A stretch of DNA of 64,000 nucleotides from Squalus acanthias (taxonomy: Eukaryota). Below, in pieces: positions 4,307 through 46,170 of the stretch (positions are counted from its first letter, which is position 1; each line of letters opens with the position of its first letter). The notes beneath the pieces are model-generated. The model was given only the letters and a program-made list of their open reading frames with translations, ran no database searches and had not been told where the DNA came from. The translations under genes were made by a program, and so were the position numbers. The DNA is taken from NCBI GenBank assembly GCA_030390025.1, contig CM059431.1, positions 135,968,001-136,032,000 on the forward strand, read 5' to 3'.

Positions 4307-5397
4307 CCTATCTAATATGGTACTGCTTCCGCCTCTAGTACTACTTTCTTCTCTGGTACTATCCAACACACTCACTCTTTGATGCACCTTATTCCTTTTT
4401 TCTACTCCTATATGCTGGTGCCCATTCCCCTGCCAAGCTAGTTTAAACCCTCCCCAACAGCACCAGCAAACCTCCCTGCGAGAATATTGGTCCCGGCTCT
4501 GTTGAGGTGTAACCCGTCCTGCTTGTACAGGTCCCACCTTCCCCAGAAACGATCCCAATGCCTCAGGAATCTAAATCCCTCCCTCCTGCACCATCTCTCT
4601 AGCCATGCAGTCATCTGTTCTATCCTCCTATTCCTGTACTCACTAGCATGTGGTAACGGGAATAATCCAGAGATTACTACCTTTGAGGTCCTGCTTTTTC
4701 ATCTCTTTTCTAGCTCCCTATAGTCTGCCTGCAGGACCTCATCCCTCTTGCTGCCTATGTTGTTGGTACCGATATGGACAACGACCTCTGACTGTTCACC
4801 CTGCCCCCTCAGAGTGTCCTGCAGTTGCTCAGTGCCATTCTTGACCCTGGCACCAGGGAGGCAACATACCATCCTGGAGTCACGCCTGCGTCCACAGAAA
4901 CGCCTATCTGTTCCCCCAACTAATGAATCCCCTATCACTATTGCTCTTCCACTCTTCTTCCTCCCCCCCCTGTGCAGCATGGTGCCGTGGCCTTGGCTCT
5001 GGCTGCTCTCCCCAGAGGAACCATCACCCCCACCAGTTTCCAGAACTGTGAACCAGGTTAGCGAGCAAGATGCACTCTGGGGATTCCTGCCCTACCTGCC
5101 TCGTCCTCCTTCTCTGTCTGGTGGTTACCCATTCTCTCTCTGCCTGTACATTCTCAGGCTGCGAGATAACCACTTCTAGAAACGTGCTTTCCAAGTAGTT
5201 CTCAGCCTTGCGGATGCACTGTAGTGACTCCAGCTGCCGCTCACGCTCCGAAACCCAGAGCTCGAGTTGCTGCAGTTGGCGACTATATGATTCTACTCAA
5301 TTAATTCTTTTGCCATGTCCTCTGCCTCTACATGAAGATTTCCCTTTGGGTCCTTAATAGGACCAACTTTTTCCCTAGCTAATCTCTACACTTTATT

Positions 5398-9982: not shown

Positions 9983-11450
9983 ATTCTGAAGGGGGAGGGC
10001 GAACAGTCAGAGGTCGTGGTTCACATTGGTACCAACGACATGGGTAGAAAGAGGGATGAGGTCCTGCAACAAGAATTTAGGGAGTTAGGTAGCAGATTAA
10101 AAAGCAGGACCTCAAAGGTTGTAATCTCTGGATTACTCCCGGTGCCACGTGCCAGTGAGTATAGGAATAGAAGGATAGAGCAGATGAATGCGTGGCTAAA
10201 GAGTTGGTGCAGGAGGGAGGGCTTCAGTTTCCTGGATCACTGGGTCTGCTTCTGGGGAAGGTGGGACCTGTACAAGTCGGACGGGTTGCACCTGAACCGG
10301 AACAGGACCAACATCCTTGCGGGGAGGTTTGCTAGTACTGTTGGGGGGGGGGGGGGGGGGGGGGGGGGTTTAAACTAACTTGGCAGGGGGATGGGATACG
10401 GAGTGGAGCTATCGTAGGAGGTGATGCACAGCCAAATATAGAGGAAAAAACAAGTCAGCCTGGAAGGCAGAGCAAATATGTAATGGCACAAAGGAGTATG
10501 ACAAGGCTGGATGGCATTTATTTTAATGCAAGGAGTCTTGCGAGTAAGGCAGATGAATTGAAGGTGTTGATGAACACATGGGAGTATGATATTGTTGCTA
10601 TCACAGAGACATGGTTGAGGGAGGGGCAGGACTGGCAGCTCAATATTCCGGGGTATAGAATCTTCAGGCGAGACAGAGGGGGGTGTAAAAGAGGAGGGGG
10701 TGTCGCAATATTAATCAAGGAGTCAATTACTGCTGTAAGGAGGGATGATATCTTAGCAGGTTCCTCTAATGAGGCCATATGGGTAGAACTTAAAATCAAA
10801 AAGGGGGCAAGCACTTTGCTGGGAGTGTACTATAGGCCCCCAAACAGTCAGAGGGAGATAGAGGAACAGATATGTAGGCAAATCTCAGAGAAGTGTAGAA
10901 ATAATAGGGTAATAATAGTAGGGGATTTCAACTTCCCAATATTAACTGGGATAGTCAGAGTGTGAAAGGATCAGAGAGTGCAGAATTCTTAAAGTGCATC
11001 CAGGAGAGCTTTTTGAGCCAGCATGTAGAAAGTCCTACAAGAGAGGGGGCAGGTACTGGACCTAATTCTAGGGAATGTAGCCAGGCAAGTGGTAGAAGTG
11101 TTAGTAGGAGAGCATTTTGGTGAGAGTGACCATAATTCGGTGAGATTTAAGGTAGATATGGAAAAGGACAAAAATGGACCGGAAATAAAGGTTCTAAATT
11201 GGGGGAAGGCCGATTTTAATATGATAAGGCAGGATCTGGCCAAAGTGGACTGGGATCAGCTACTTGTAGGAAAATTCAAATCAAAGTAGTGGGAGTCTTT
11301 CAGAAAGGAAATGGAGAGAGTACAACGCCAACATGTTCCCGTAAAGGTCAAGGGTGGGACCAACAAGCCCAGGTAACCCTGGATGTCAAGGGATATATGA
11401 GAATGGATTAGGAAAAAAGGGAGGCTTTTGGCAGATACAAAGGACTAAAA

Positions 11451-28625: not shown

Positions 28626-31568
28626 AGTGAAGAGATGCATATAGGCACAGCATATATAGTCAGAGAACACTGCCAGATGATTACAGTTAATCTTTCCAAC
28701 TGCCCTTTATCACACCTCGGCAGAGAGATAATCATGGCAATCAAAGGTGTGGATGGTGTCCAAACAGGTCAGTCAGGAAAACATTACACAAAAGACAATG
28801 TGGCAGATGCTGGGGTCCGTATGGAAAACAAAAAACTTTTTTTGCTGGAAATCACAGCAGGTCCGGCCGCATCTGTGTAGAGAGAACAAGCCAACGACGA
28901 CTCGAGTCTGGATGACTCTACGTCAGGTGGGGTTACATGTAGCGTGACATGAACCCAAGATCCCGGTTGAGGCCGTCCTCATGGGTGCGGAACTTGGCTA
29001 TCAGTTTCTGCTCGACGATTTTGCGTTGTCGTGTGTCTCGAAGGCCGCCTTGGAGAATGCTTACCCGAAGATCGGAGGCTGAATGTCCTTGACTGCTGAA
29101 GTGTTCCCCGACTGGGAGGGAACACTCCTGCCTGGCGATTGTTGCGCGGTGTCCGTTCATACGTTGTCGTGGTGTCTGCATGGTCTCACCGATGTACCAT
29201 GCTCCGGGGCATCCTTTCCTGCAACGTATGAGGTAGACAACGTTGGCCGAGTCACATGAGTATGTACCATGTACCTGGTGGGTGGTGTCCTCACGTGTGA
29301 TGATGGTATCTGTGTTGATGATCTGGCATGTCTTGCAGAGGTTGCCGTGGCAGGGTTGTGTGGTGTCGTGGTCACTGTTCTCCTGAAAGCTGGGTAATTT
29401 GCTGCAAACGATGGTCTGTTTGAGGGTAGGCTGCTGTTTGAAGGCGAGTAGTGGGGGCGTGGGGATGGCCTTAGCGAGGTGTTCATCGTCATCGATGACA
29501 TGTTGAAGGCTGCGAAGAACATGGCGTAGTTTCTCCGCTCCGGGGAAGTACTGGACGACGTAGGGTACTCTGTTGGTTGTGTCCCGTGTTTGTCTTCTGA
29601 GGAGGTCTATGCGATTTTTCGCTGTGGCCCGTCGGAACTGTCGATCGACGAGTCGAGCATCATATGCCGTTCTTACGAGGGCGTCGTTCAGCGTCTGTAG
29701 GTGTCCATCGCGTTCCTCCTCGTCTGAGCAGATCCTGTGTATTCGCAGGGCTTGTCCATAGGGGATGGCTTCTTTAACGTGGTTAGGGTGGAAGCTGGAG
29801 AAGTGGAGCATCGTGAGGTTGTCCGTGGGCTTACGGTAGAGTGAAGTGCTGAGGTGTCCGTCTTTGATGGAGATTCGTGTGTCCAAGAATGAAACCGATT
29901 CTGAGGAGTAGTGCATGGTGAGTTTGATGGTGGGATGGAACTTGTTGATGTTATCGTGTAGTCTTTTCAGTGATTCTTCGCCGTGGGTCCATAGGAAGAA
30001 AATGTTGTCGATGTATCTGGTATATAGCATTGGTTGGAGGTCCTGTGCAGCGAAGAAGTCTTGCTCGAACTTGTGCATGAAGATGTTGGCGTATTGGGGT
30101 GCGAATTTGGTCCCCATGGCTGTTCCGTGTGTTTGGGTAAAAAACTGGTTGTCGAAGGTGAAGACATTGTGGTCAAGGATGAAGTGGATGAGTTGTAGGA
30201 TGGCATCTGGAGATTGGCTGTTGTTGGTGTTGAGTACTGAGGCTGTCGCAGCGATGCCATCATCGTGGGGCATACTGGTGTAGAGTGCCGAGATGTCCAT
30301 CGTGGCGAGGAGTGTTCCTGGTTCAACTGGTCCGTGGGTGCTGAGTTTCTGTAAGAAGTCTGTAGTGTCGCGACAGAAGCTGGGGGTTCCCTGTATGATG
30401 GGTTTCAGGATGCCCTCGACGTATCCAGAGAGGTTCTCACACAGGGTTCCGTTGCCTGATACGATAGGACGTCCGGGTGTGTTGGCTTTGTGTATCTTTG
30501 GGAGGCAGAAGTCTCCCACGTGGGATGGGAGCGCGTAGGATGCTTTGAAGGTCTGGATCGAAGGTCTTGATCAGTCTATTGAGTTGGCGGGTGTGTTCTT
30601 TGGTCGGATCTGCGGGTAACTGTCTGTAGTGTTCCTGGTTGTCCAGTTGTCGGTATGCTTCTTTGCAATAGTCCATTCTGTTCTGTATGACGATGGCTCC
30701 TCCTTTGTCCGCTGGTTTGATGACGATGTTGCAGTTGGTCTTGAGAGCGTGGATGGCGTTGCGTTGTGCTTGGGTGACATTCTGGACTGTCTTGTGAGTG
30801 CGGCTGATGAATCTGGCGTTGATGCATCTCCTGACAGCTTGAGCATACATGTCAAGCTTAGGGCAGCGACCCTCCGGAGGGGTCCAATTTGACTCTTTCT
30901 TCTTCAGTTGCTGCACTGCAGGTCCCTCTGTCAGCTGTTCCGGATCATTGATTGTCTCATTGGATTCGCTGCTGACATCTTGGGATTCGTGGAAGAATTC
31001 CCGGAGCCTCATTCTCCTGATGAATTCCTCTGTGTCTGCCGCGAGACCGATGGGGTCCATTTTGGTGGTGGGGCAGAAAATGAGCCCTCGGCTGAGAACT
31101 TCGATTTCGTCTGGTTGAAGGGTATGGTCGGACAAGTTGACGATGGACTTCCCTGTGGTTGCAACCGAGGTACCGGGGGAGGCTTGGTTGCTGCTGGTGG
31201 TGATGCCGAGTTTCTCAAGCTTCCTGTTCTTGGTGTGCATGTAGGCAGCGTAGTTCCGTTGCCTCATCTGTTTGGCGGTCATCCAGACTCGAGTCGTCGT
31301 TGGCTTGTTCTCTCTACACAGATGCGGCCGGACCTGCTGTGATTTCCAGCAAAAAAAGTTTTTTGTTTTCCATACAGACCCCAGCATCTGCCACATTGTC
31401 TTTGATGTAATGTTTTCCTGACTGACCTGTTTGGACACAACCCACACCTTTGATTGCCGTGATTATCTCTCTGCTGAGGTGTGATAAAGGGCAGTTGGAA
31501 AGATTAACTGTAATCATCTGGCAGTGTTCTCTGACTATATATGCTGTGCCTATATGCATCTCTTCACT

Positions 31569-32809: not shown

Positions 32810-33008
32810 AGAACATAAGAAATAGGAGCAGGAGTAGGCCATTCAGCCCTTCGAGCCTGCTCCGCCATTCAATGAGATCATGGCTAATCTTCTGCCTCAA
32901 CTCCATTCACCGGACCTATCGCCATATCCCTTGATGCCTTTACTAGTCAGAAATTTATCGACTTCTGTTTTGAATATACCCAATGACTGAGCCTCCACAG
33001 CCCTCTGG
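32810..33008 (-). mobile_element. CR1 3'-end fragment inserted in L2
   Basis: aagaacataagaaataggagcaggagtaggccattc... tail/UTR; encodes QRAVEAQSLGIFKTEVDKFL. Confidence 0.85.
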
Positions 33009-33274
33009 TGTAGAAGATCAACCAGGATGGCAAAAATAACTCCAGGCTTCTCTTCTCCACCACTAACCGTAATCTCAAACCAACCTCCCTTGCCTCCTCC
33101 TCCTCCATCATCTCCAACAATAAATGCGAGGAGCTCATGAACTTCTTTGTTAAAAAGACTGACAACATCCATTCAACTGCTTCTAATTTCAATTCCCTCC
33201 CTTCCCCTAGCCCACCGGATCTTTCTTCCTGTTCATTTTCCCCCTGCCCTAACCCTAAATTTGCATATTTCTCT

Positions 33275-36200
33275 CGGATGGTATGTTGCCTCCCGGGTGC
33301 CAGGGTCCGTGACGTCTCGGACCGTGTTTTCAGAATCCTCAAAGGGGAGGAGGAACAATCACAAGTCGTGGTACACATCGGTACCAACGACATAGGTAGG
33401 AGAAGGGACGGGGATTTAAAACAGGAATTTAGGGAGCTAGGTTGGAAGCTGAGAGCCAGTACAAACCATGTTGTAATTTCTGGTTTGTTGCCGGTGCCAC
33501 GTGCTAGCGAGTTGAGGAACAGGGAGAGAGTGCAGATAAACACGTGGCTGCAGGGATGGTGTAGCGGGGAGGGTTTCAGTTATGTGGATAATTGGAGCAC
33601 ATTCTGGGGAAGGTGGGACCTGTACAAACAGGACGGTTTGCACCTGAACCAGAGGGGCACCAATATCCTGGGAGGGAAATTTGCTACAGCTCTTCGGGGG
33701 GGTTTAAACTAATTTGTCAGGGGGATGGGAAAAAGGGCTGTAGTCCACGAGCCAGTGGTGAGTGTAGGGAGGTACTGAGGAGGGTATCAAGGTCGCAGGA
33801 ATGTACCGGCAGACAGGAAGATGGCTTGAAGTGTGTCTACTTCAATGCAAGGAGCATCCGGAATAAGGTAGGAGAACTTGGAGCGTGGATTGGTACTTGG
33901 GACTACGATGTGGTGGCCATTACGGAGACATGGTTAGAACAGGGACAGGAATGGTTGTTGGAAGTTCCGGGGTATAGATGTTTCAGTAAGAGTAGGGAAG
34001 TTGGTAAGAAAGGTGGAGGAGTAGCATTGTTAATCAAGGATAGTTTAACAGCGGCAGAAAGGCAGTTCGAGGGGGATCTGCCGTCTGAGGTAATATGGGC
34101 TGAAGTTAGAAATAGGAAAGGAGCGGTCACGTTGTTAGGAGTTTTCTACAGGCCCCCAAATAGTAATAGAGATGTGGAGGAAGAAATTGCAAAGCAGATT
34201 ATGAATAGGTGTGGAGGTCACAGAGTAGTTGTCATGGGTGACTTCAACTTTCCAAATATTGATTGGAACCTTTATAGGTCAAACAGTTCGGATGGGATAG
34301 TTTTTGCACAGTGTGTGCAGGAGGGTTTCCTGACACAATATGTGGATAGGCCGACAAGAGCTGGGGCCACGTTGGATTTGGTACTGGGTAATGAACCGGG
34401 CCAAGTGTTTGATTTGTATGTGGGAGAGCACTTTGGAGATAGTGACCACAATTCGGTAACTTTCACTATTGCAATGAAGAGGGATAGGGCCATACGGCAG
34501 GGCAGGGTTTATAATTGGGGGAGGGGTAATTATGATGCAATTAGGCAAGAATTAGGGAGTATAAGATGGGAACTGAAACTATCAGGGAAAGGCACAAACG
34601 AAAAGTGGAGCTTTTTCATGGAGCAATTACTGCGTGTCCTTGATAGGTATGTCCCTGTCAGGCAGGGAGGAAATGGCCGAGTGAGAGAACCATGGTTCAC
34701 AAAAGAGGTTGAATGTCTAGTCAAGAGGAAAAAGGAAGCGTATGTAAGGATGAGAAAACAAGGTTCAGTTGGGTCGATTGAGGGGTACAAGGTAGCAAGG
34801 AATGAGCTAAAAAAAGAGCTTAGGAGAGCTAGGAGGGGGCATGAGAAGTCCTTGGCGGGTCGGATCAAGAAAAACCCCAAGGCCTTTTACTCTTATGTGA
34901 GAAATAAAAGAATGACCAGGGTGAGGGTAGGGCCGGTCAAGGACAGTAGTGGGAACTTGTGCATGGAGTCAGAAGAGATAGGAGAGGTGATGAATGAATA
35001 CTTTTCGTCAGTGTTCACCGAGGAGAGGGGCCATGTTCTTGAGGATGAGAGTGTGATAAAGGTGGATAGGCTGGAGGTGGTAGATGTTCTGAGGGAAGAT
35101 GTTTTAGTAATTTTGAAGAACCTGAGGGTCGATAAGTCCCCTGGGCCAGATGGGATATATCCTAGGATTCTTTGGGAGGCAAGGGAGGAGATTGCAGAGC
35201 CTCTGGCTTTGATCTTTGGGTCCTCACTGTCCACGGGAATGGTGCCAGAGGACTGGAGAGTGGCGAATGTTGTTCCTCTCTTCAAGAAAGGAAATAGGAA
35301 TGACCCTGGTAATTATAGGCCGGTTAGTCTTACTTCGGTGGTTGGTAAGATAATGGAAAAGGTCCTGAGGGATAGGATTTATGACCATTTGGAAAGGGGC
35401 AACTTAATCAGGGATAGTCAACACGGATTCGTGAAGGGTAAGTCTTGCCTAACAAATTTGATTGAATTCTTTGAGGAGGTAACTAAGTGTGTGGATGAAG
35501 GTAGAGCGGTTGATGTCGTATACATGGATTTTAGTAAGGCGTTTGATAAGGTTCCCCATGGTCGGCTCATGAAGAAAGTAAGGAGTTGTGGGGTAGAGGG
35601 AAATTTGGCCGATTGGATAAGTAACTGGCTATCTCATAGAAGGCAGAGGGTGGTGGTGGATGGAACATTTTCGGACTGGAGACCAGTTACCAGCGGTGTG
35701 CCACAGGGGTCGGTGCTGGGTCCTCTGCTGTTTGTGATTTTTATCAATGACTTGGAGGAGGGGACTGAAGGGTGGATCAGTAAATTTGCTGATGACACCA
35801 AGATTGGTGGAGCAGTGGATGAGGTGGAGGGCTGTTGTAGGCTGCAAAGAGACATTGATAGGATGCAGAGCTGGGCCGAAAAATGGCAGATGGAATTTAA
35901 CCCTGATAAGTGCGAGGTGATTCATTTTGGTAGGGCAAATTTGAATAAGGATTACAGGGTCAACGGCAGGGTTCTGAGGAACGTGGAGGAACAGAGGGAT
36001 CTGGGGGTTCATATCCACAGATCTCTGAAGGTTGCCACTCAAGTGGATAGAGCAGTAAAGAAGGCCTATGGTGTGTTGGCGTTTATTAACAGAGGGTTTG
36101 AGTTTAAGAACCGTGAGGTTATGCTGCAACTGTACAGGACCTTGGTGAGACCACATTTGGAATATTGTGTGCAGTTCTGGTCACCTCACTATAGGAAGGA

Positions 36201-36694
36201 CGTGGAAGCATTGGAAAGAGTGCAAAGGAGATTTACCAGGATGCTGCCTGGTTTGGGGGGGAGGTCTTATGAGGAAAGATTGAGGGAGTTGGGGCTTTTC
36301 TCTTTAGAGCAGAGGAGGATGAGAGGCGACTTAATAGAGGTTTATAAGATGATGAGGGGGATAGATAGAGTGGATGTTCAGAGACTATTTCCTCGTGTGG
36401 AGGTAGCTGTTACAAGGGGGCATAACTATAAGGTGCATGGGGGGAGATATAGAAGGGATGTCCGAGGTAGATTCTTTACTCAGAGAGTGGTTGGGGTGTG
36501 GAATGGACTGCCTGCTGTGATAGTGGAGTCGGACACTTTAGGAACTTTCAAGCGGTTATTGGATAAGCACATGGAGCACACCAGAGTGATAGGGAGTGTG
36601 ATAGCTTGATCTTGGTCTCGGACAATGCTCGGCACAACATCGAGGGCCGAAGGGCCTGTACTGTGCTGTACTGTTCTATGTTCTATGTTCTATG
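33275..36694 (+). mobile_element. Young CR1 LINE: ORF1 C-terminal esterase (to 33712) plus intact ORF2
   Basis: Uninterrupted ORF2 to 36609; (TTCTATG)n tail; short TSD ttctct (33269-33274 / 36695-36700). Confidence 0.95.
33703..36609 (+). CDS. CR1 ORF2: APE endonuclease-reverse transcriptase, open; start mechanism unclear (no ATG until 34201)
   Basis: YFNARS, ITETW, GDFN, SDH, QHGF, DFSKAFD, PQGSVLGP and FADD in one frame with no stops. Confidence 0.85.
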   Translation, partial: FKLICQGDGKKGCSPRASGECREVLRRVSRSQECTGRQEDGLKCVYFNARSIRNKVGELGAWIGTWDYDVVAITETWLEQGQEWLLEVPGYRCFSKSREVGKKGGGVALLIKDSLTAAERQFEGDLPSEVIWAEVRNRKGAVTLLGVFYRPPNSNRDVEEEIAKQIMNRCGGHRVVVMGDFNFPNIDWNLYRSNSSDGIVFAQCVQEGFLTQYVDRPTRAGATLDLVLGNEPGQVFDLYVGEHFGDSDHNSVTFTIAMKRDRAIRQGRVYNWGRGNYDAIRQELGSIRWELKLSGKGTNEKWSFFMEQLLRVLDRYVPVRQGGNGRVREPWFTKEVECLVKRKKEAYVRMRKQGSVGSIEGYKVARNELKKELRRARRGHEKSLAGRIKKNPKAFYSYVRNKRMTRVRVGPVKDSSGNLCMESEEIGEVMNEYFSSVFTEERGHVLEDESVIKVDRLEVVDVLREDVLVILKNLRVDKSPGPDGIYPRILWEAREEIAEPLALIFGSSLSTGMVPEDWRVANVVPLFKKGNRNDPGNYRPVSLTSVVGKIMEKVLRDRIYDHLERGNLIRDSQHGFVKGKSCLTNLIEFFEEVTKCVDEGRAVDVVYMDFSKAFDKVPHGRLMKKVRSCGVEGNLADWISNWLSHRRQRVVVDGTFSDWRPVTSGVPQGSVLGPLLFVIFINDLEEGTEGWISKFADDTKIGGAVDEVEGCCRLQRDIDRMQSWAEKWQMEFNPDKCEVIHFGRANLNKDYRVNGRVLRNVEEQRDLGVHIHRSLKVATQVDRAVKKAYGVLAFINRGFEFKNREVMLQLYRTLVRPHLEYCVQFWSPHYRKDVEALERVQRRFTRMLPGLGGRSYEERLRELGLFSLEQRRMRGDLIEVYKMMRGIDRVDVQRLFPRVEVAVTRGHNYKVHGGRYRRDVRGRFFTQRVVGVWNGLPAVIVESDTLGTFKRLLDKHMEHTRVIGSVIA

Positions 36695-37024
36695 TTCTCT
36701 AATTTCTCTCTTGCCCTTTCAAAGCTCATCTTGTCAATGAGACCAACCTCCTGCTCTCTCGACCCTATTCCTACTAAATTACTGACAACCCAACTTTCCT
36801 TCCTGGCTCCCATGTTAGCAGATATTGTTAACGGTTCTCTCTCCTCCGGTATTGTCCCCCTTTCCTTCAAATCTGCAGTCATCACCCCTCTTCTCAAAAA
36901 AACAACCCTTGACCCCTCCATTCTTGCAAACTATCACCCCCATCTCCAACCTCCCTTTCCTCTCCAAAGTCCATGAACGTGTTATCACCTCCCAAATCCA
37001 TTCCCATCTTTCCCAGAACTCCTT

Positions 37025-37675
37025 GGTATGGTATGTTGGCCTTCATAGCGAAAGGGTTTGAGTACAGGAGCAGGATGTCCTGCTGCACTTGTACAGGGCC
37101 TTGGTGAGACCACACCTTGAGTACTGTGTGCAGTTTTGGTCGCCTTATCTGAGGAAGGATGTTCTTGCCATGGAAGGAGTTCAGCGAAGATTCACAAGGC
37201 TGATACCTGGGATGGCAGGAATGACATATGAGGAGAGATTGGGTCGATTGGGCTTATACTGACTGGAGTATAGAAGAATGAGAGGGGATCTCATCGAAAC
37301 AGATAGAATTCTGACAGGTCTGGACAAACTAGATGCAGGAAGAATGTTCCCGATGTTCGGAGAGTCCAGAACCAGGGGTCATAATCTAAGGATAACGGGT
37401 AAGCCATTTAGGACAGAAATGAGGAAGAATTTCTTCACCCAGAGAGTGGTGAACCTGTGGAATTCTCTACCACAGAAGGTAGTTGAGGTCAAGTCATTAA
37501 ATATATTCAAGAATGAGTTAGATATATTTCTTAAAGCTAAAGGTATCAAGGGATATGGGGAGAAGGCAGGTACAGGGTACTGAGTTTGGATGATCAGCCA
37601 TGATCCCATCGAATGGCGGAGCAGGCTCGAGGGGCCGAATGGCCTACTCCTGCTCCTATCTTCTATGTTTCTATG
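37025..37675 (+). mobile_element. CR1 3' fragment inserted in L2
   Basis: ORF 37278-37583; near-identical to the 3' end of 11451-14009; tail cttctatgtttctatg. Confidence 0.9.
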
Positions 37676-43718: not shown

Positions 43719-46170
43719 TAGAATCATAGAATGGTTACTGCATAGAAGGAGGCCATTCGGCCTGTCGAGCCCGTGCCCGCTCTCTGCAAGAGCACTTCAG
43801 CTAGTCCCACTCCCCCGCCCTTTCCCCGTAGCCCGGCAATTTTTTTCCCTTCAAGTACTTATCCAATTCCCTTTTGAAAGCCACAATTGAATCTGCCTCC
43901 ACCACCCTTTCAGGCAGTGCATTCTAGATCCTAACCACTCGCTGCGTAAAAAAGTTTTTCCTCATGTCTCCTTTGGTTCTTTTGCCAATCACCTTAAGTC
44001 TGTGTCCTCTGGTTCTCGATACTTCCGCCAATGGGAACAGTTTCTTTCCATTTACTCTGTCTAGACCACTCATGATTTTGAACACCTCTATCAAATAGCC
44101 TCTCAATCTTCTCTGCTCTAAGGCAAACAACCCCAGTTTCTCTAGTCTATCCACGTAAATGAAGTCCCTCATCCCTGGAACCATTCTCGTAAATCTTTTC
44201 TGCACCCTCTCTAAGGCCTTCACATCCTTCCTAAAGTGCAGTGCCCCGAATTTGACGCAATACTTCAGTTGAGGCCGAAACAGCGTTTTATAAAGGTTCA
44301 ACATAACTTCCTTGCTTTTGTACTCTATGCCTCTATTTATGAAGCCCAGGATCCCGTATGCTTTTTAACTGTTTTCTCAACCTGTCCTGCCACCTTCAAC
44401 GATTTGTGCACATATACCCTCCAGGTCTCTCTCTTCATGCACCCCCTTTAGAATTGTACCCTTTAGTTTATATTTCCTCTCCTCATTCTTCTTACCAAAA
44501 TGTATCACTTCGCACTTTTCTGCATTAAATTTCATCTGCCACGTGTCCGCTCATTTCACCAGCCAGTCTATGTCTTCTTGAACTCTATCACTATCCTTCT
44601 CACTGTTCACTATACTTCCAAGTTTTGTGTCATCTGCAATATTGTGAAATTGTGCCCTGTACACCCAAGTCCAAGTCATTAATACATATCAAGAAAAGCA
44701 GTGGTCCTCGTCCCGACCCCTGGGGAACATCACTGTATACCTTCCTCCAGTCCGAAAAACAACCATTCACCACTACTCTCTGTTTGGTATCCATGCTGCC
44801 ACTATCCCTGATTATCGTTTCTAAATATTCTCCACTACCGAGGTTAAACTGACTGGCCTGTATTTGCTGGGTTTATCCTTACACCCTCTTTTGAACAAGG
44901 GTGTAACATTTGCAATTCTCCAGTCCTCTGGCATCACCCCTATATCTAACGAGGATTGGAAGATTATGGCCAGTACCTCCGCGATTTCCACCTTAAATTC
45001 CTTCAGCATCCTAGCATGCATCCCATCCAGTCCTAGTGACTTATCTACTTTAAGTACAGCCAACCTTTCTAGTACCTCCTCTTTATCAATTTTTATCCCA
45101 TCCAGTATCTCTACTAGCTCCTCTTTCAATATGACTTTGGCAGCATCTTCTTCCTTGGTGAAGACAGATGCAAAGTACTCATTTAGTACCTCAGCTATGC
45201 CCTCTGCCTCCATGTGTAGGTCTCCTTTTTGGTCCCTAATCAGCCCCACCCCTCCTCTTACTACCCGTTTACTATTTGTATACCTATAGAAGACTTTTGG
45301 ATTACTTTTATGTTAGCTGCCAATCTGTTCTCATACTCTCTCTTTGCCCCTCTTATTTTCTTTTTAACGTCCCGTCTGAACTTTCTATATTCAACCTGAT
45401 TCTCACTTGTATTCTCAACCTGACATCTGTCATACATACTTTTTTTCTGCTTCATCTTATCTCTTTTGTCATCCAGGGAGTTCTGACTTTGGTTGCCCTA
45501 CCTTTCCCCCTTGTGGGAATGTACGACTGTGCCCGAACCATCTCCTCTTTAAAGGCAGCCCATTGTTTGATTACAGTTTTGCCTGCCAATCTTTGATTCC
45601 AATTTACCCGGGCCAGATCCATTCTCAATCCACTGAAATTGGCCTTCCTCCAATTAAGTATTGTTAATCTAGGTTGCTCCCAGTCCTTTTCCATAGCTAA
45701 TCTAAACCGTATGATACTATGATCACTGTTCCCTAAATGTTCCCCTACTGACACTTGCTCCACTTGACCCACCTCATTTCCCAGAACCAGATCCAGCAAT
45801 GCCTGCTTCCTCATTGGGCTGGAAATGTACTGATCAAGAAAGTTCTCCTGAACACAATTCAGAAATTCTTCCCCCTCTCTGCCCTTTACTCTATTACTAT
45901 CCCAGTCTATATTAGTATGTGCACCATGTTTCTCCTTTCTAATGCTATATCCTGGTGCCCATCCCCCTGCCAAATTAGTTTAAACCCTTCCCAACAGCAC
46001 CAGCAAATACCCCCATGAGGATATTGGTCCTGGCTCTGTTGAGGTGCAACCTGTCTGTCCCAGGAATCTAAAGCCCTCCCTTCTGCACCATCTCTCCAGC
46101 CACGCATTCATCTGCTCTATCCTCCTATTTCTATACTCACTCGTGCGTGGCAATGGGAGTAATCCAGTCA
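43717..46170 (-). mobile_element. CR1 LINE with large internal deletions (ORF1 end to 3' tail)
   Basis: ORFs 45980-46171 (ORF1), 45452-45973, 44821-45249 and 43924-44304; tail catagaatcatagaa at 43717. Confidence 0.88.

Follow-up and report, generated by a model that had tools for sequence, protein, structure and literature searches.

Several described systems bear on the locus considered here, namely the junction of ORF1 and ORF2 (ORF, open reading frame) in a CR1-type long interspersed nuclear element (LINE) found in a 64,000-nt stretch of DNA (the window) from Squalus acanthias, a cartilaginous fish with a 3.7-Gb genome. In retroviral Gag-Pol, in long terminal repeat (LTR) retroelements and in the gene PEG10, the ORF of a structural or RNA-binding protein closes with a slippery heptamer of the X XXY YYZ type, and the polymerase, encoded after it in the -1 frame, is made as part of a fusion protein at a set ratio. 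The slippery site is GGGAAAC in PEG10 and UUUAAAC in coronaviruses. Among 51 animal LTR retroelements surveyed, 28 have pol in the -1 frame, and PEG10 is stated to use frameshifting (PMC5009743). In the silkworm LINE SART1 the RNA is bicistronic and the expression of ORF2 is coupled to the end of ORF1; an overlapping AUG is needed, and the sequence just past the stop codon matters (PMC3894237; PMC10275272). Mammalian L1 produces ORF2p from one RNA at a far lower level than ORF1p, and the AUG of its ORF2 is dispensable (PMC5009743; PMC1965478). The CR1 junction resembles the first group: a canonical slippery heptamer, conserved among diverged lineages, directly precedes the ORF1 stop codon and ORF2 lies in the -1 frame. 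Comparison of the junctions points to a clade-wide programmed -1 frameshift that would yield an ORF1p-ORF2p fusion, a reading to which we assign a probability of roughly 0.72.

An ORF2 in the -1 frame was noted long ago in jockey-like elements of Drosophila, and the general idea is thus an old one. What was not found in print is a conserved canonical site across CR1. The preliminary description of this DNA had left it undecided whether frameshifting in CR1 has been published; in the open-access full text, whose coverage did not extend to the original CR1 descriptions, neither a frameshift proposal for CR1 nor a slippery site for any LINE was found. The non-LTR elements named in the accessible part of PMC5009743 are HeT-A, TART and L1, not CR1. 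The treatments of LINE ORF2 translation in PMC3708506 and in the accessible part of PMC3894237 name reinitiation, entry of the internal ribosome entry site type and 2A peptides, with frameshifting unnamed. The word "frameshift" is absent from PMC4120745, PMC3905857, PMC4316615 and PMC3708506, and neither "frameshift" nor "overlap" occurs in the accessible text of the 2026 CR1 survey PMC13343379. Overlapping ORFs are reported for Helena of the Jockey superfamily, with no mechanism named (PMC6179348).

The candidate shift site and the CR1 copy of the window

In the frame of the ORF 33137..33712 (forward strand), positions 33701-33712 read GGT TTA AAC TAA. The heptamer T TTA AAC (33703..33709, forward strand) is thus in X XXY YYZ phase with respect to ORF1, and the ORF1 stop codon TAA (33710..33712, forward strand) abuts its 3' side. 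The ORF2 frame (33592..36609, 1005 codons) is -1 relative to ORF1, crosses the site as TTT AAA CTA ATT... (FKLICQGDG) and stays open up to its stop codon at 36607..36609. Its earliest ATG is found at 34201-34203, inside the endonuclease domain and past the motifs YFNARS, ITETW and GGGV; the start of the ORF track at 33592 is a TTG, and a further in-frame TTG is located at 33826. The heptamer with its phase, the -1 frame of ORF2 and the positions of the start codons had been reported in the preliminary description and agree with the sequence and the ORF positions. As there is no ORF2-frame ATG before 34201, the window family has no AUG of the SART1 type overlapping or abutting the ORF1 stop.

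The sequence TTTAAAC occurs 12 times in the window on both strands against 5.98 expected, corresponding to eight distinct places. Four of the eight are ends of CR1 ORF1 (33703 on the forward, 4441 on the reverse, 10369 on the forward and 45978 on the reverse strand), which argues for a family feature and not a chance match. The last three (4441-4447, reverse; 10369-10375, forward; 45978-45984, reverse) belong to other CR1 families, and each consists of TTTAAAC, TAA or TAG and a G-rich block.

The element itself (33272..36699, forward strand) is a 5'-truncated copy of a very young and abundant CR1-type LINE with an intact ORF2. It consists of an ORF1 remnant, ORF2 and a 3' untranslated region ending with TGTTCTA-like tandem repeats. 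In an ungapped comparison with a full-length copy the identity drops from 95-100% to the background upstream of ~33272, which marks the 5' edge; across the 1698 nt 3' of the heptamer the two copies are 99.4% identical. The ATG at 33137 lies in unrelated DNA upstream of the truncated copy. A complete ORF1-ORF2 fusion is therefore impossible from the window copy itself, and in this respect the proposal of the preliminary description, which concerned this single element, needs correction. Its core, a fusion made by frameshifting, gained comparative support and looks like a trait of the whole clade.

The 341-nt junction is present in the genome in at least 40 copies of 99-100% identity (40 of 1185 candidates were scored). 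All 30 near-identical copies that were fetched have the same heptamer, and in 10 of these 30 an intact ORF1 of 308 aa counted from its Met was found, with a CxxC...CxxC motif, a coiled coil and the esterase. The ORF1 remnant of the window (33272..33712, forward strand) comprises the C-terminal ~145 codons of this SGNH/GDSL esterase ORF1 including the stop (Pfam PF13472, E 3.7e-12). In ORF2, the apurinic/apyrimidinic (AP)-type endonuclease domain (YFNARS...ITETW...) occupies 33838..34449 on the forward strand (PF03372 Exo_endo_phos, E 8.6e-22, residues 83-286 counted from 33592) and the reverse transcriptase domain occupies 35290..36009 on the same strand (PF00078 RVT_1, E 5.3e-37, residues 567-806). 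In place of poly(A), TGTTCTA-like short repeats are read directly at ~36670-36699. The traits of a CR1 element with an esterase ORF1 are thus present: AP endonuclease with a central reverse transcriptase, SGNH/GDSL ORF1, and a repeat tail together with 5' truncation. A short-tandem-repeat tail of this type is a defining feature of CR1. Homologues of ORF1 carry SGNH esterase names in birds, turtles and frogs, and the esterase type is described as the sole identifiable ORF1 type in CR1 and L2 (PMC13343379). The frames at 30437-31447 (reverse), 32897-33172 (reverse) and 37278-37583 (forward) are fragments of other retroelements with CR1-like C-terminal motifs such as KGIKGYG..., so the studied copy is nested among older insertions.

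Conservation of the junction among CR1 lineages

Since near-identical young copies are uninformative on selection, diverged relatives were sought. The genome was queried with the ORF1 proteins of frog, sawshark and penguin, and families with an ORF1 30-80% identical to these queries were retrieved. With no requirement for the heptamer, 77 ORF1 ends were located by the esterase motif in genome and metagenome contigs, giving 40 distinct 74-nt junction strings. In 35 of the 40, TTTAAAC is followed by TAA or TAG. The other five are one GGGAAAC with TAG from a metagenome contig, one TTTAAAT (a decayed copy with a disrupted downstream region), two with insertions or deletions in a G-run and one false match of the motif. 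The codon before Leu is GGT, GAT, AAT, AGT, TGT or GCT in the genome families; together with the bird/reptile-type contigs described below, which add TCT and ACT, eight codons are found, and the third base is T in all of them. The background codon use in 11 ORF1s is 22% for T at the third position, 12% for TTA among Leu codons and 50% for AAC among Asn codons. The heptamer is kept in phase, synonymous positions included, across CR1 lineages with only 30-60% identity in ORF1. All diverged CR1 families sampled in the genome show NNT TTA AAC TA[AG], and their ORF2 (IYFNARS...ITETW) is in the -1 frame. The two ORFs overlap in most families for only five codons ahead of the heptamer, as the -1 frame has a TAG 22 nt before the ORF1 stop. 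Judging from the preceding T, the TTA codon and the alternative GGGAAAC, the conservation of the site exceeds the need at the protein level. As a separate observation, the stop after the heptamer is TAA or TAG and never TGA in all 35 TTTAAAC strings and in all eight bird/reptile-type contigs.

These contigs were found when metagenome contigs were scanned with aligned ORF1s from frog, bird, eel and chimaera. The scan gave 40 loci, and the match reached the ORF1 end in 14 of them. Eight of the 14 (L079, L080, L083, L091, L092, L093, L098 and L108) have TCT, GCT or ACT followed by TTA AAC TA[GA], and their ORF1 tails are bird-like. Of the remaining six, three are decayed (L085, L087, L094), two run off the contig (L088, L090) and one, L081, has another heptamer: at the same position it reads CAG GGA AAC TAG, i.e. 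a different canonical heptamer, with ORF2 in the -1 frame. The endonuclease is visible in the -1 frame in L079, L080, L091 and L081. The G GGA AAC of L081 would be a change that keeps slipperiness. Its closest relative in the shark genome is no more than 41% identical in ORF1 (116 matches).

The same pattern can be followed at the level of proteins. Among 185 ORF1 homologues, 99 have a natural C-terminus, defined as esterase block V lying 12-32 residues from the end; the counts below exclude the remaining 86, which are truncated, fused or mispredicted. The proteins come, as far as their sources are named, from sharks, rays, frogs, turtles, an eel and many birds. The C-terminal dipeptide is LN in 92 of the 99, as compared with the background LN frequency of 0.49%. 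It is preceded by A (35), G (24), Y (9), T (8), C (4), D (3), S (2), H (2), I (2), L (1), F (1) or E (1). This residue can be encoded by NNU in 91 of the 92 cases; K, E, Q, M and W make up 19.8% of residues overall. The seven exceptions include LNY, IN and LK ends, LNY being that of the sole chimaera protein.

A phmmer search with the ORF1 of L081 against 1.84 billion representatives gave 2245 matches at E<=0.001. The best 150 of them were used, and the following counts apply to this set. Of these proteins 148 were new, and 118 of the 148 have a natural C-terminus: GN in 29, LN in 8 and KN in 3, with any final N in 48. The background for these dipeptides is 0.3-0.4% each. GN is preceded by Q (19), S (5), A (2), P (2) or L (1), all encodable by NNG (29 of 29); KN is preceded by S (2) or A (1), encodable by NNA in all three, and the residue before LN is encodable by NNU in all eight. 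The three kinds of ends correspond to what would be expected from G GGA AAC, A AAA AAC and U UUA AAC, respectively. DNA of the GN-type lineage was looked for in genome contigs, where only bacterial SGNH hydrolases of 21-38% identity were met (49 loci), and in viral contigs, which gave no matches. The only named relatives found for these distant ORF1s are an entry under Armadillidium vulgare that carries a flag as unverified contaminant (90% identity across half of the query) and one from Pseudorasbora parva (32%).

An ORF1 end as constant as LN could in principle be a motif that matters for ORF1p. The heptamer would then be a by-product of protein-level selection for Leu-Asn or, alternatively, of shared ancestry devoid of function. 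This is the least probable of the explanations considered here. Selection on the protein fixes neither TTA nor AAC, given their background use. The T before the heptamer is fixed though the preceding residue varies (G, D, N, S, C, A, T), GN and KN ends are found elsewhere with the matching class of the preceding base, and the shared ancestry in question concerns families with the low ORF1 identity given above.

Some of the protein records deserve separate mention. In the same set of the best 150 matches, 21 of the 118 relatives of L081 have GF or FF within the last six residues, and the GF-x/FF-x ends (P0208, P0217, P0220, P0224, P0241 and others) include FR (6), FC (4), FQ (3) and FH (2). Such ends might correspond to U-rich heptamers placed one codon before the stop. 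The protein P0006, 74% identical to the shark ORF1, is filed under Pseudomonas aeruginosa on a 4159-nt contig and most likely represents contaminating animal DNA in a bacterial assembly. For P0039, P0165 and P0117, the gene models in databases continue from the esterase of ORF1 to the endonuclease (425 and 462 aa) or past ...ALN; these models could be annotation artefacts or further copies with both ORFs in frame.

Linker, start codons and sequences around the heptamer

Between the shift site and the endonuclease of the window, the -1 frame encodes a linker FKLICQGDGKK...GLKCV of 45 codons (33703..33837, forward strand) with no stop and no Met. Over this linker frame 0 has 3 stops and the +1 frame 4, against 0 in the -1 frame. 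The survey was extended to 44 distinct junctions that are followed by 330 nt or more of sequence, the frame of each being scored by the endonuclease motif. The endonuclease is in the -1 frame in 32 of them and in the +1 frame in one decayed copy; in 11 the motif was not found. The linkers vary strongly in sequence and in length (37-70 codons), and 29 of the 32 in the -1 frame are free of stops. Across the 32, the -1 frame has a mean of 0.12 stops, as compared with 5.09 for frame 0 and 4.12 for the +1 frame. In 11 of the 29 open linkers there is no Met before the endonuclease; these are of the window family, of the L031 family (55 codons) and of L042.

Several observations weigh against frameshifting, among them those on start codons. 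The L051 subfamily has a TAATG, i.e. an overlap of stop and start codons. In the bird/reptile-type L079, L080, L098 and L108 an ATG occurs 4-7 nt past the stop, which is frequent there but not constant, and L081 has an ORF2-frame ATG 18 nt upstream of the stop. In lineages with an AUG beside the stop termination-reinitiation is possible. Extended to all lineages, this explanation assumes a separate ORF2 protein that starts near the ORF1 stop by reinitiation or in some unconventional way, at AUG where present and at a non-AUG codon elsewhere, and a heptamer conserved for some other reason. It is favored further by the lack of a predicted stable frameshift stimulator and by reviews reporting reinitiation for SART1 and AUG-independent translation of ORF2 for L1 (PMC3894237; PMC5009743). 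We nevertheless consider this explanation, the main rival to frameshifting, unlikely. The AUG is missing from the 11 open linkers mentioned above, and where the TAATG subfamily has its ATG, close relatives whose ORFs are intact carry ACG, AAA or ATA. Judging from the sequences compared, an AUG near the stop is recurrent but not conserved, while the heptamer is conserved. Reinitiation leaves unexplained the in-phase heptamer at synonymous sites, the T that ends eight different preceding codons and the swap of UUUAAAC for GGGAAAC. In lineages with an AUG at the stop, reinitiation may operate alongside frameshifting. The CR1 junction is similar to SART1 in that a bicistronic LINE RNA would have the expression of ORF2 coupled to the end of ORF1, and one shark subfamily even shares the TAATG; unlike SART1, CR1 lacks the AUG in many open linkers and loses it among close relatives, while the slippery heptamer is kept.

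The downstream RNA may also count against frameshifting. The fold of this region, suggested in the preliminary description, gave no significant hairpin in the 121 nt downstream in the window (z = -0.80). No shared or significant hairpin was found in 16 junctions from 14 loci either (z from -1.86 to +1.67), and an Rfam search of 33600-33950 with E up to 1 gave no match; the folding programs used are blind to pseudoknots and to protein-dependent stimulators. What is conserved downstream is a G-rich block GGGGGATGGGAA (33720..33731, forward strand), a candidate 3' stimulator or a G-[DE]-G peptide. It is separated from the stop codon by a 7-nt spacer (33713..33719, forward strand) that is variable between families, the commonest base being held by 8-16 of 21 representatives. 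The block is GGGGGATGGGAA in sharks and GGGGGAAGGGGA in bird/reptile-type CR1, and it usually starts 10 nt after the heptamer (8-12), which is beyond the usual spacer, the stimulatory pseudoknot or stem-loop of a canonical site lying 5-9 nt downstream. Its first four positions are G in 18-19 of the 21 representatives, these 21 including two chance matches and one insertion at the stop. Compared with one another, the shark families show a nucleotide identity of 0.69-0.82 over the first ~30 nt past the heptamer, and of 0.13-0.5 further on. When G-quadruplex energies were included in the fold, five shark junctions gave a predicted two-tetrad G-quadruplex and the window family and the bird type gave none.

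Read in the -1 frame, the block gives G-[DE]-G, and in L081 it is displaced by about one codon; it may thus matter as peptide, as RNA signal or in both ways. The possibility that the peptide, instead of an RNA signal, is what is conserved counts against the proposal. Two further points count against the proposal or its extent. The heptamers of the distant GN, KN and LN lineages are deduced from protein ends, DNA having been seen for L081 only. In the zebrafish element ZfL2-1 of the L2 clade, transposition depends little on the ORF1 esterase (Kajikawa et al. 2012, as cited in PMC13343379).

Two other elements of the window family were considered and set aside. A 12-bp helix encloses the shift site (33683..33744, forward strand), pairing 33683-33694 with 33733-33744 in the fold of 33640-33800 (z of the whole stretch +0.43). 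Its arms are not conserved in other families; the helix is specific to the window family and probably takes no part in a shared mechanism. A common A/G variant at 33688 preserves the pair (A-U or G-U). Likewise, only the window family has, before the stop, a UGGGA resembling that of termination upstream ribosome-binding sites.

The sequence directly before the heptamer brings in one more explanation, namely slippage of a polymerase (RNA polymerase II or the reverse transcriptase of the element) on a G-run, which would produce some RNAs with ORF1 and ORF2 in one frame. The G-run is indeed unstable: it is G7 in the window family, varies between G8, G9, G12 and G13 among copies of the L071-type family and exceeds 25 G in the window at 10369 (region 10330-10375, forward strand). 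The copies with a variable run are L071, L072, L074, L119-L121, L173-L175, L178-L182 and L184. In five G9 copies (L119-L121, L173 and L174) ORF1 is in frame with ORF2 (...VGGGFKLTWQGDG...), and open frames of 426-857 aa pass through the junction in at least 9 of 117 matches. Over ~300 nt, the five G9 copies do not differ from eight G8 copies by any diagnostic substitution, in a sample that is biased, having been picked by open-frame length. Most families, however, have no long G-run before the heptamer (GGGGAGGG and GGGGAGGA, or GAGAGGGC in the bird/reptile type), and the heptamer is kept in all of them. In the contigs of four sequencing runs no insertions or deletions were found over the junction, although contigs drop rare variants; two of them, X17 (33352-34300) and X3 (33352-33786), span the junction free of gaps, the label of both as RNA being a guess, and the result bears on neither expression nor slippage. 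Taken together, polymerase slippage is a very improbable source of ORF2p.

Proposed expression of ORF2 and its implications

Programmed -1 frameshifting would proceed in the following way. In full-length copies ribosomes would translate the 308-aa ORF1 with its zinc-knuckle-like motif, coiled coil and SGNH esterase, and the majority of them would terminate at the UAA or UAG after U UUA AAC. A minority would slip by -1 on the heptamer, with re-pairing of tRNA-Leu (UUA to UUU) and of tRNA-Asn (AAC to AAA), and would then read CUA... in the -1 frame. The predicted product is a fusion of ORF1p, linker, endonuclease and reverse transcriptase of ~1,275 aa with the junction ...GGLN-LICQGDG. Shifting at this site is proposed here on comparative grounds, possibly with help from the G-rich block ~10 nt downstream (GGGGGWWGGGRA). 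The rate of slipping would set the ORF1p:ORF2p ratio similarly to retroviral Gag:Gag-Pol, and the fusion would tether ORF2p to the ORF1p multimer on its own RNA.

This arrangement differs from Gag-Pol in that CR1 is a non-LTR element with an ORF1p other than Gag, the stop of frame 0 follows the heptamer immediately and only a G-rich block, with no pseudoknot or stem-loop, was found. A low level of ORF2p relative to ORF1p, made from one RNA, is a feature of L1 that CR1 would share; unlike L1, where the ORFs do not overlap, a spacer lies between them and the proteins are separate, CR1 is predicted to make a covalent ORF1p-ORF2p fusion. Frameshifting stimulated by trans-acting factors is known from arteriviruses and cardioviruses. 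Among 3' stimulators, a minority that begins 12-15 nt downstream works together with such factors (PMC5009743). The CR1 block is similar to these sites, being conserved, apparently unstructured and located farther out than a classical pseudoknot; it differs from them in being G-rich, is not known to bind a protein and is a candidate stimulator only.

A broader version of the proposal can be put forward tentatively, and we regard it as doubtful. According to it, the whole set of CR1-group LINEs having an esterase ORF1, in hosts that range from invertebrates to birds, would depend on a -1 transframe fusion as the only form of ORF2p. The canonical heptamers used, directly ahead of the ORF1 stop, would be lineage-specific: U UUA AAC in the vertebrates and either G GGA AAC or A AAA AAC in other hosts. 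Tuning of the shift would fall to the G-rich block, acting as a G-quadruplex or as a site for a host protein or ORF1p, and not to a pseudoknot. If ORF1p binds the block, the ORF1p:ORF2p ratio would be self-regulating. If this broad reading is true, CR1 would provide the first established case of -1 programmed frameshifting among non-LTR retrotransposons, and a strategy like that of Gag-Pol would have arisen outside the world of retroviruses and LTR elements.

How ORF2 of a LINE is translated from a bicistronic RNA is a long-standing question, for which the conserved slippery site offers a concrete mechanism that can be tested with reporters. The in-phase heptamer followed by a stop would provide a simple mark of possible coding competence in CR1 copies. 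CR1-group elements are described as the dominant retrotransposons in most vertebrates (PMC13343379). If frameshifting does take place at these junctions, the covalent ORF1p-ORF2p fusion bears on cis-preference and on the stoichiometry of the ribonucleoprotein particle, and a large family of examples from animal genomes would join the few known non-viral -1 frameshift sites.

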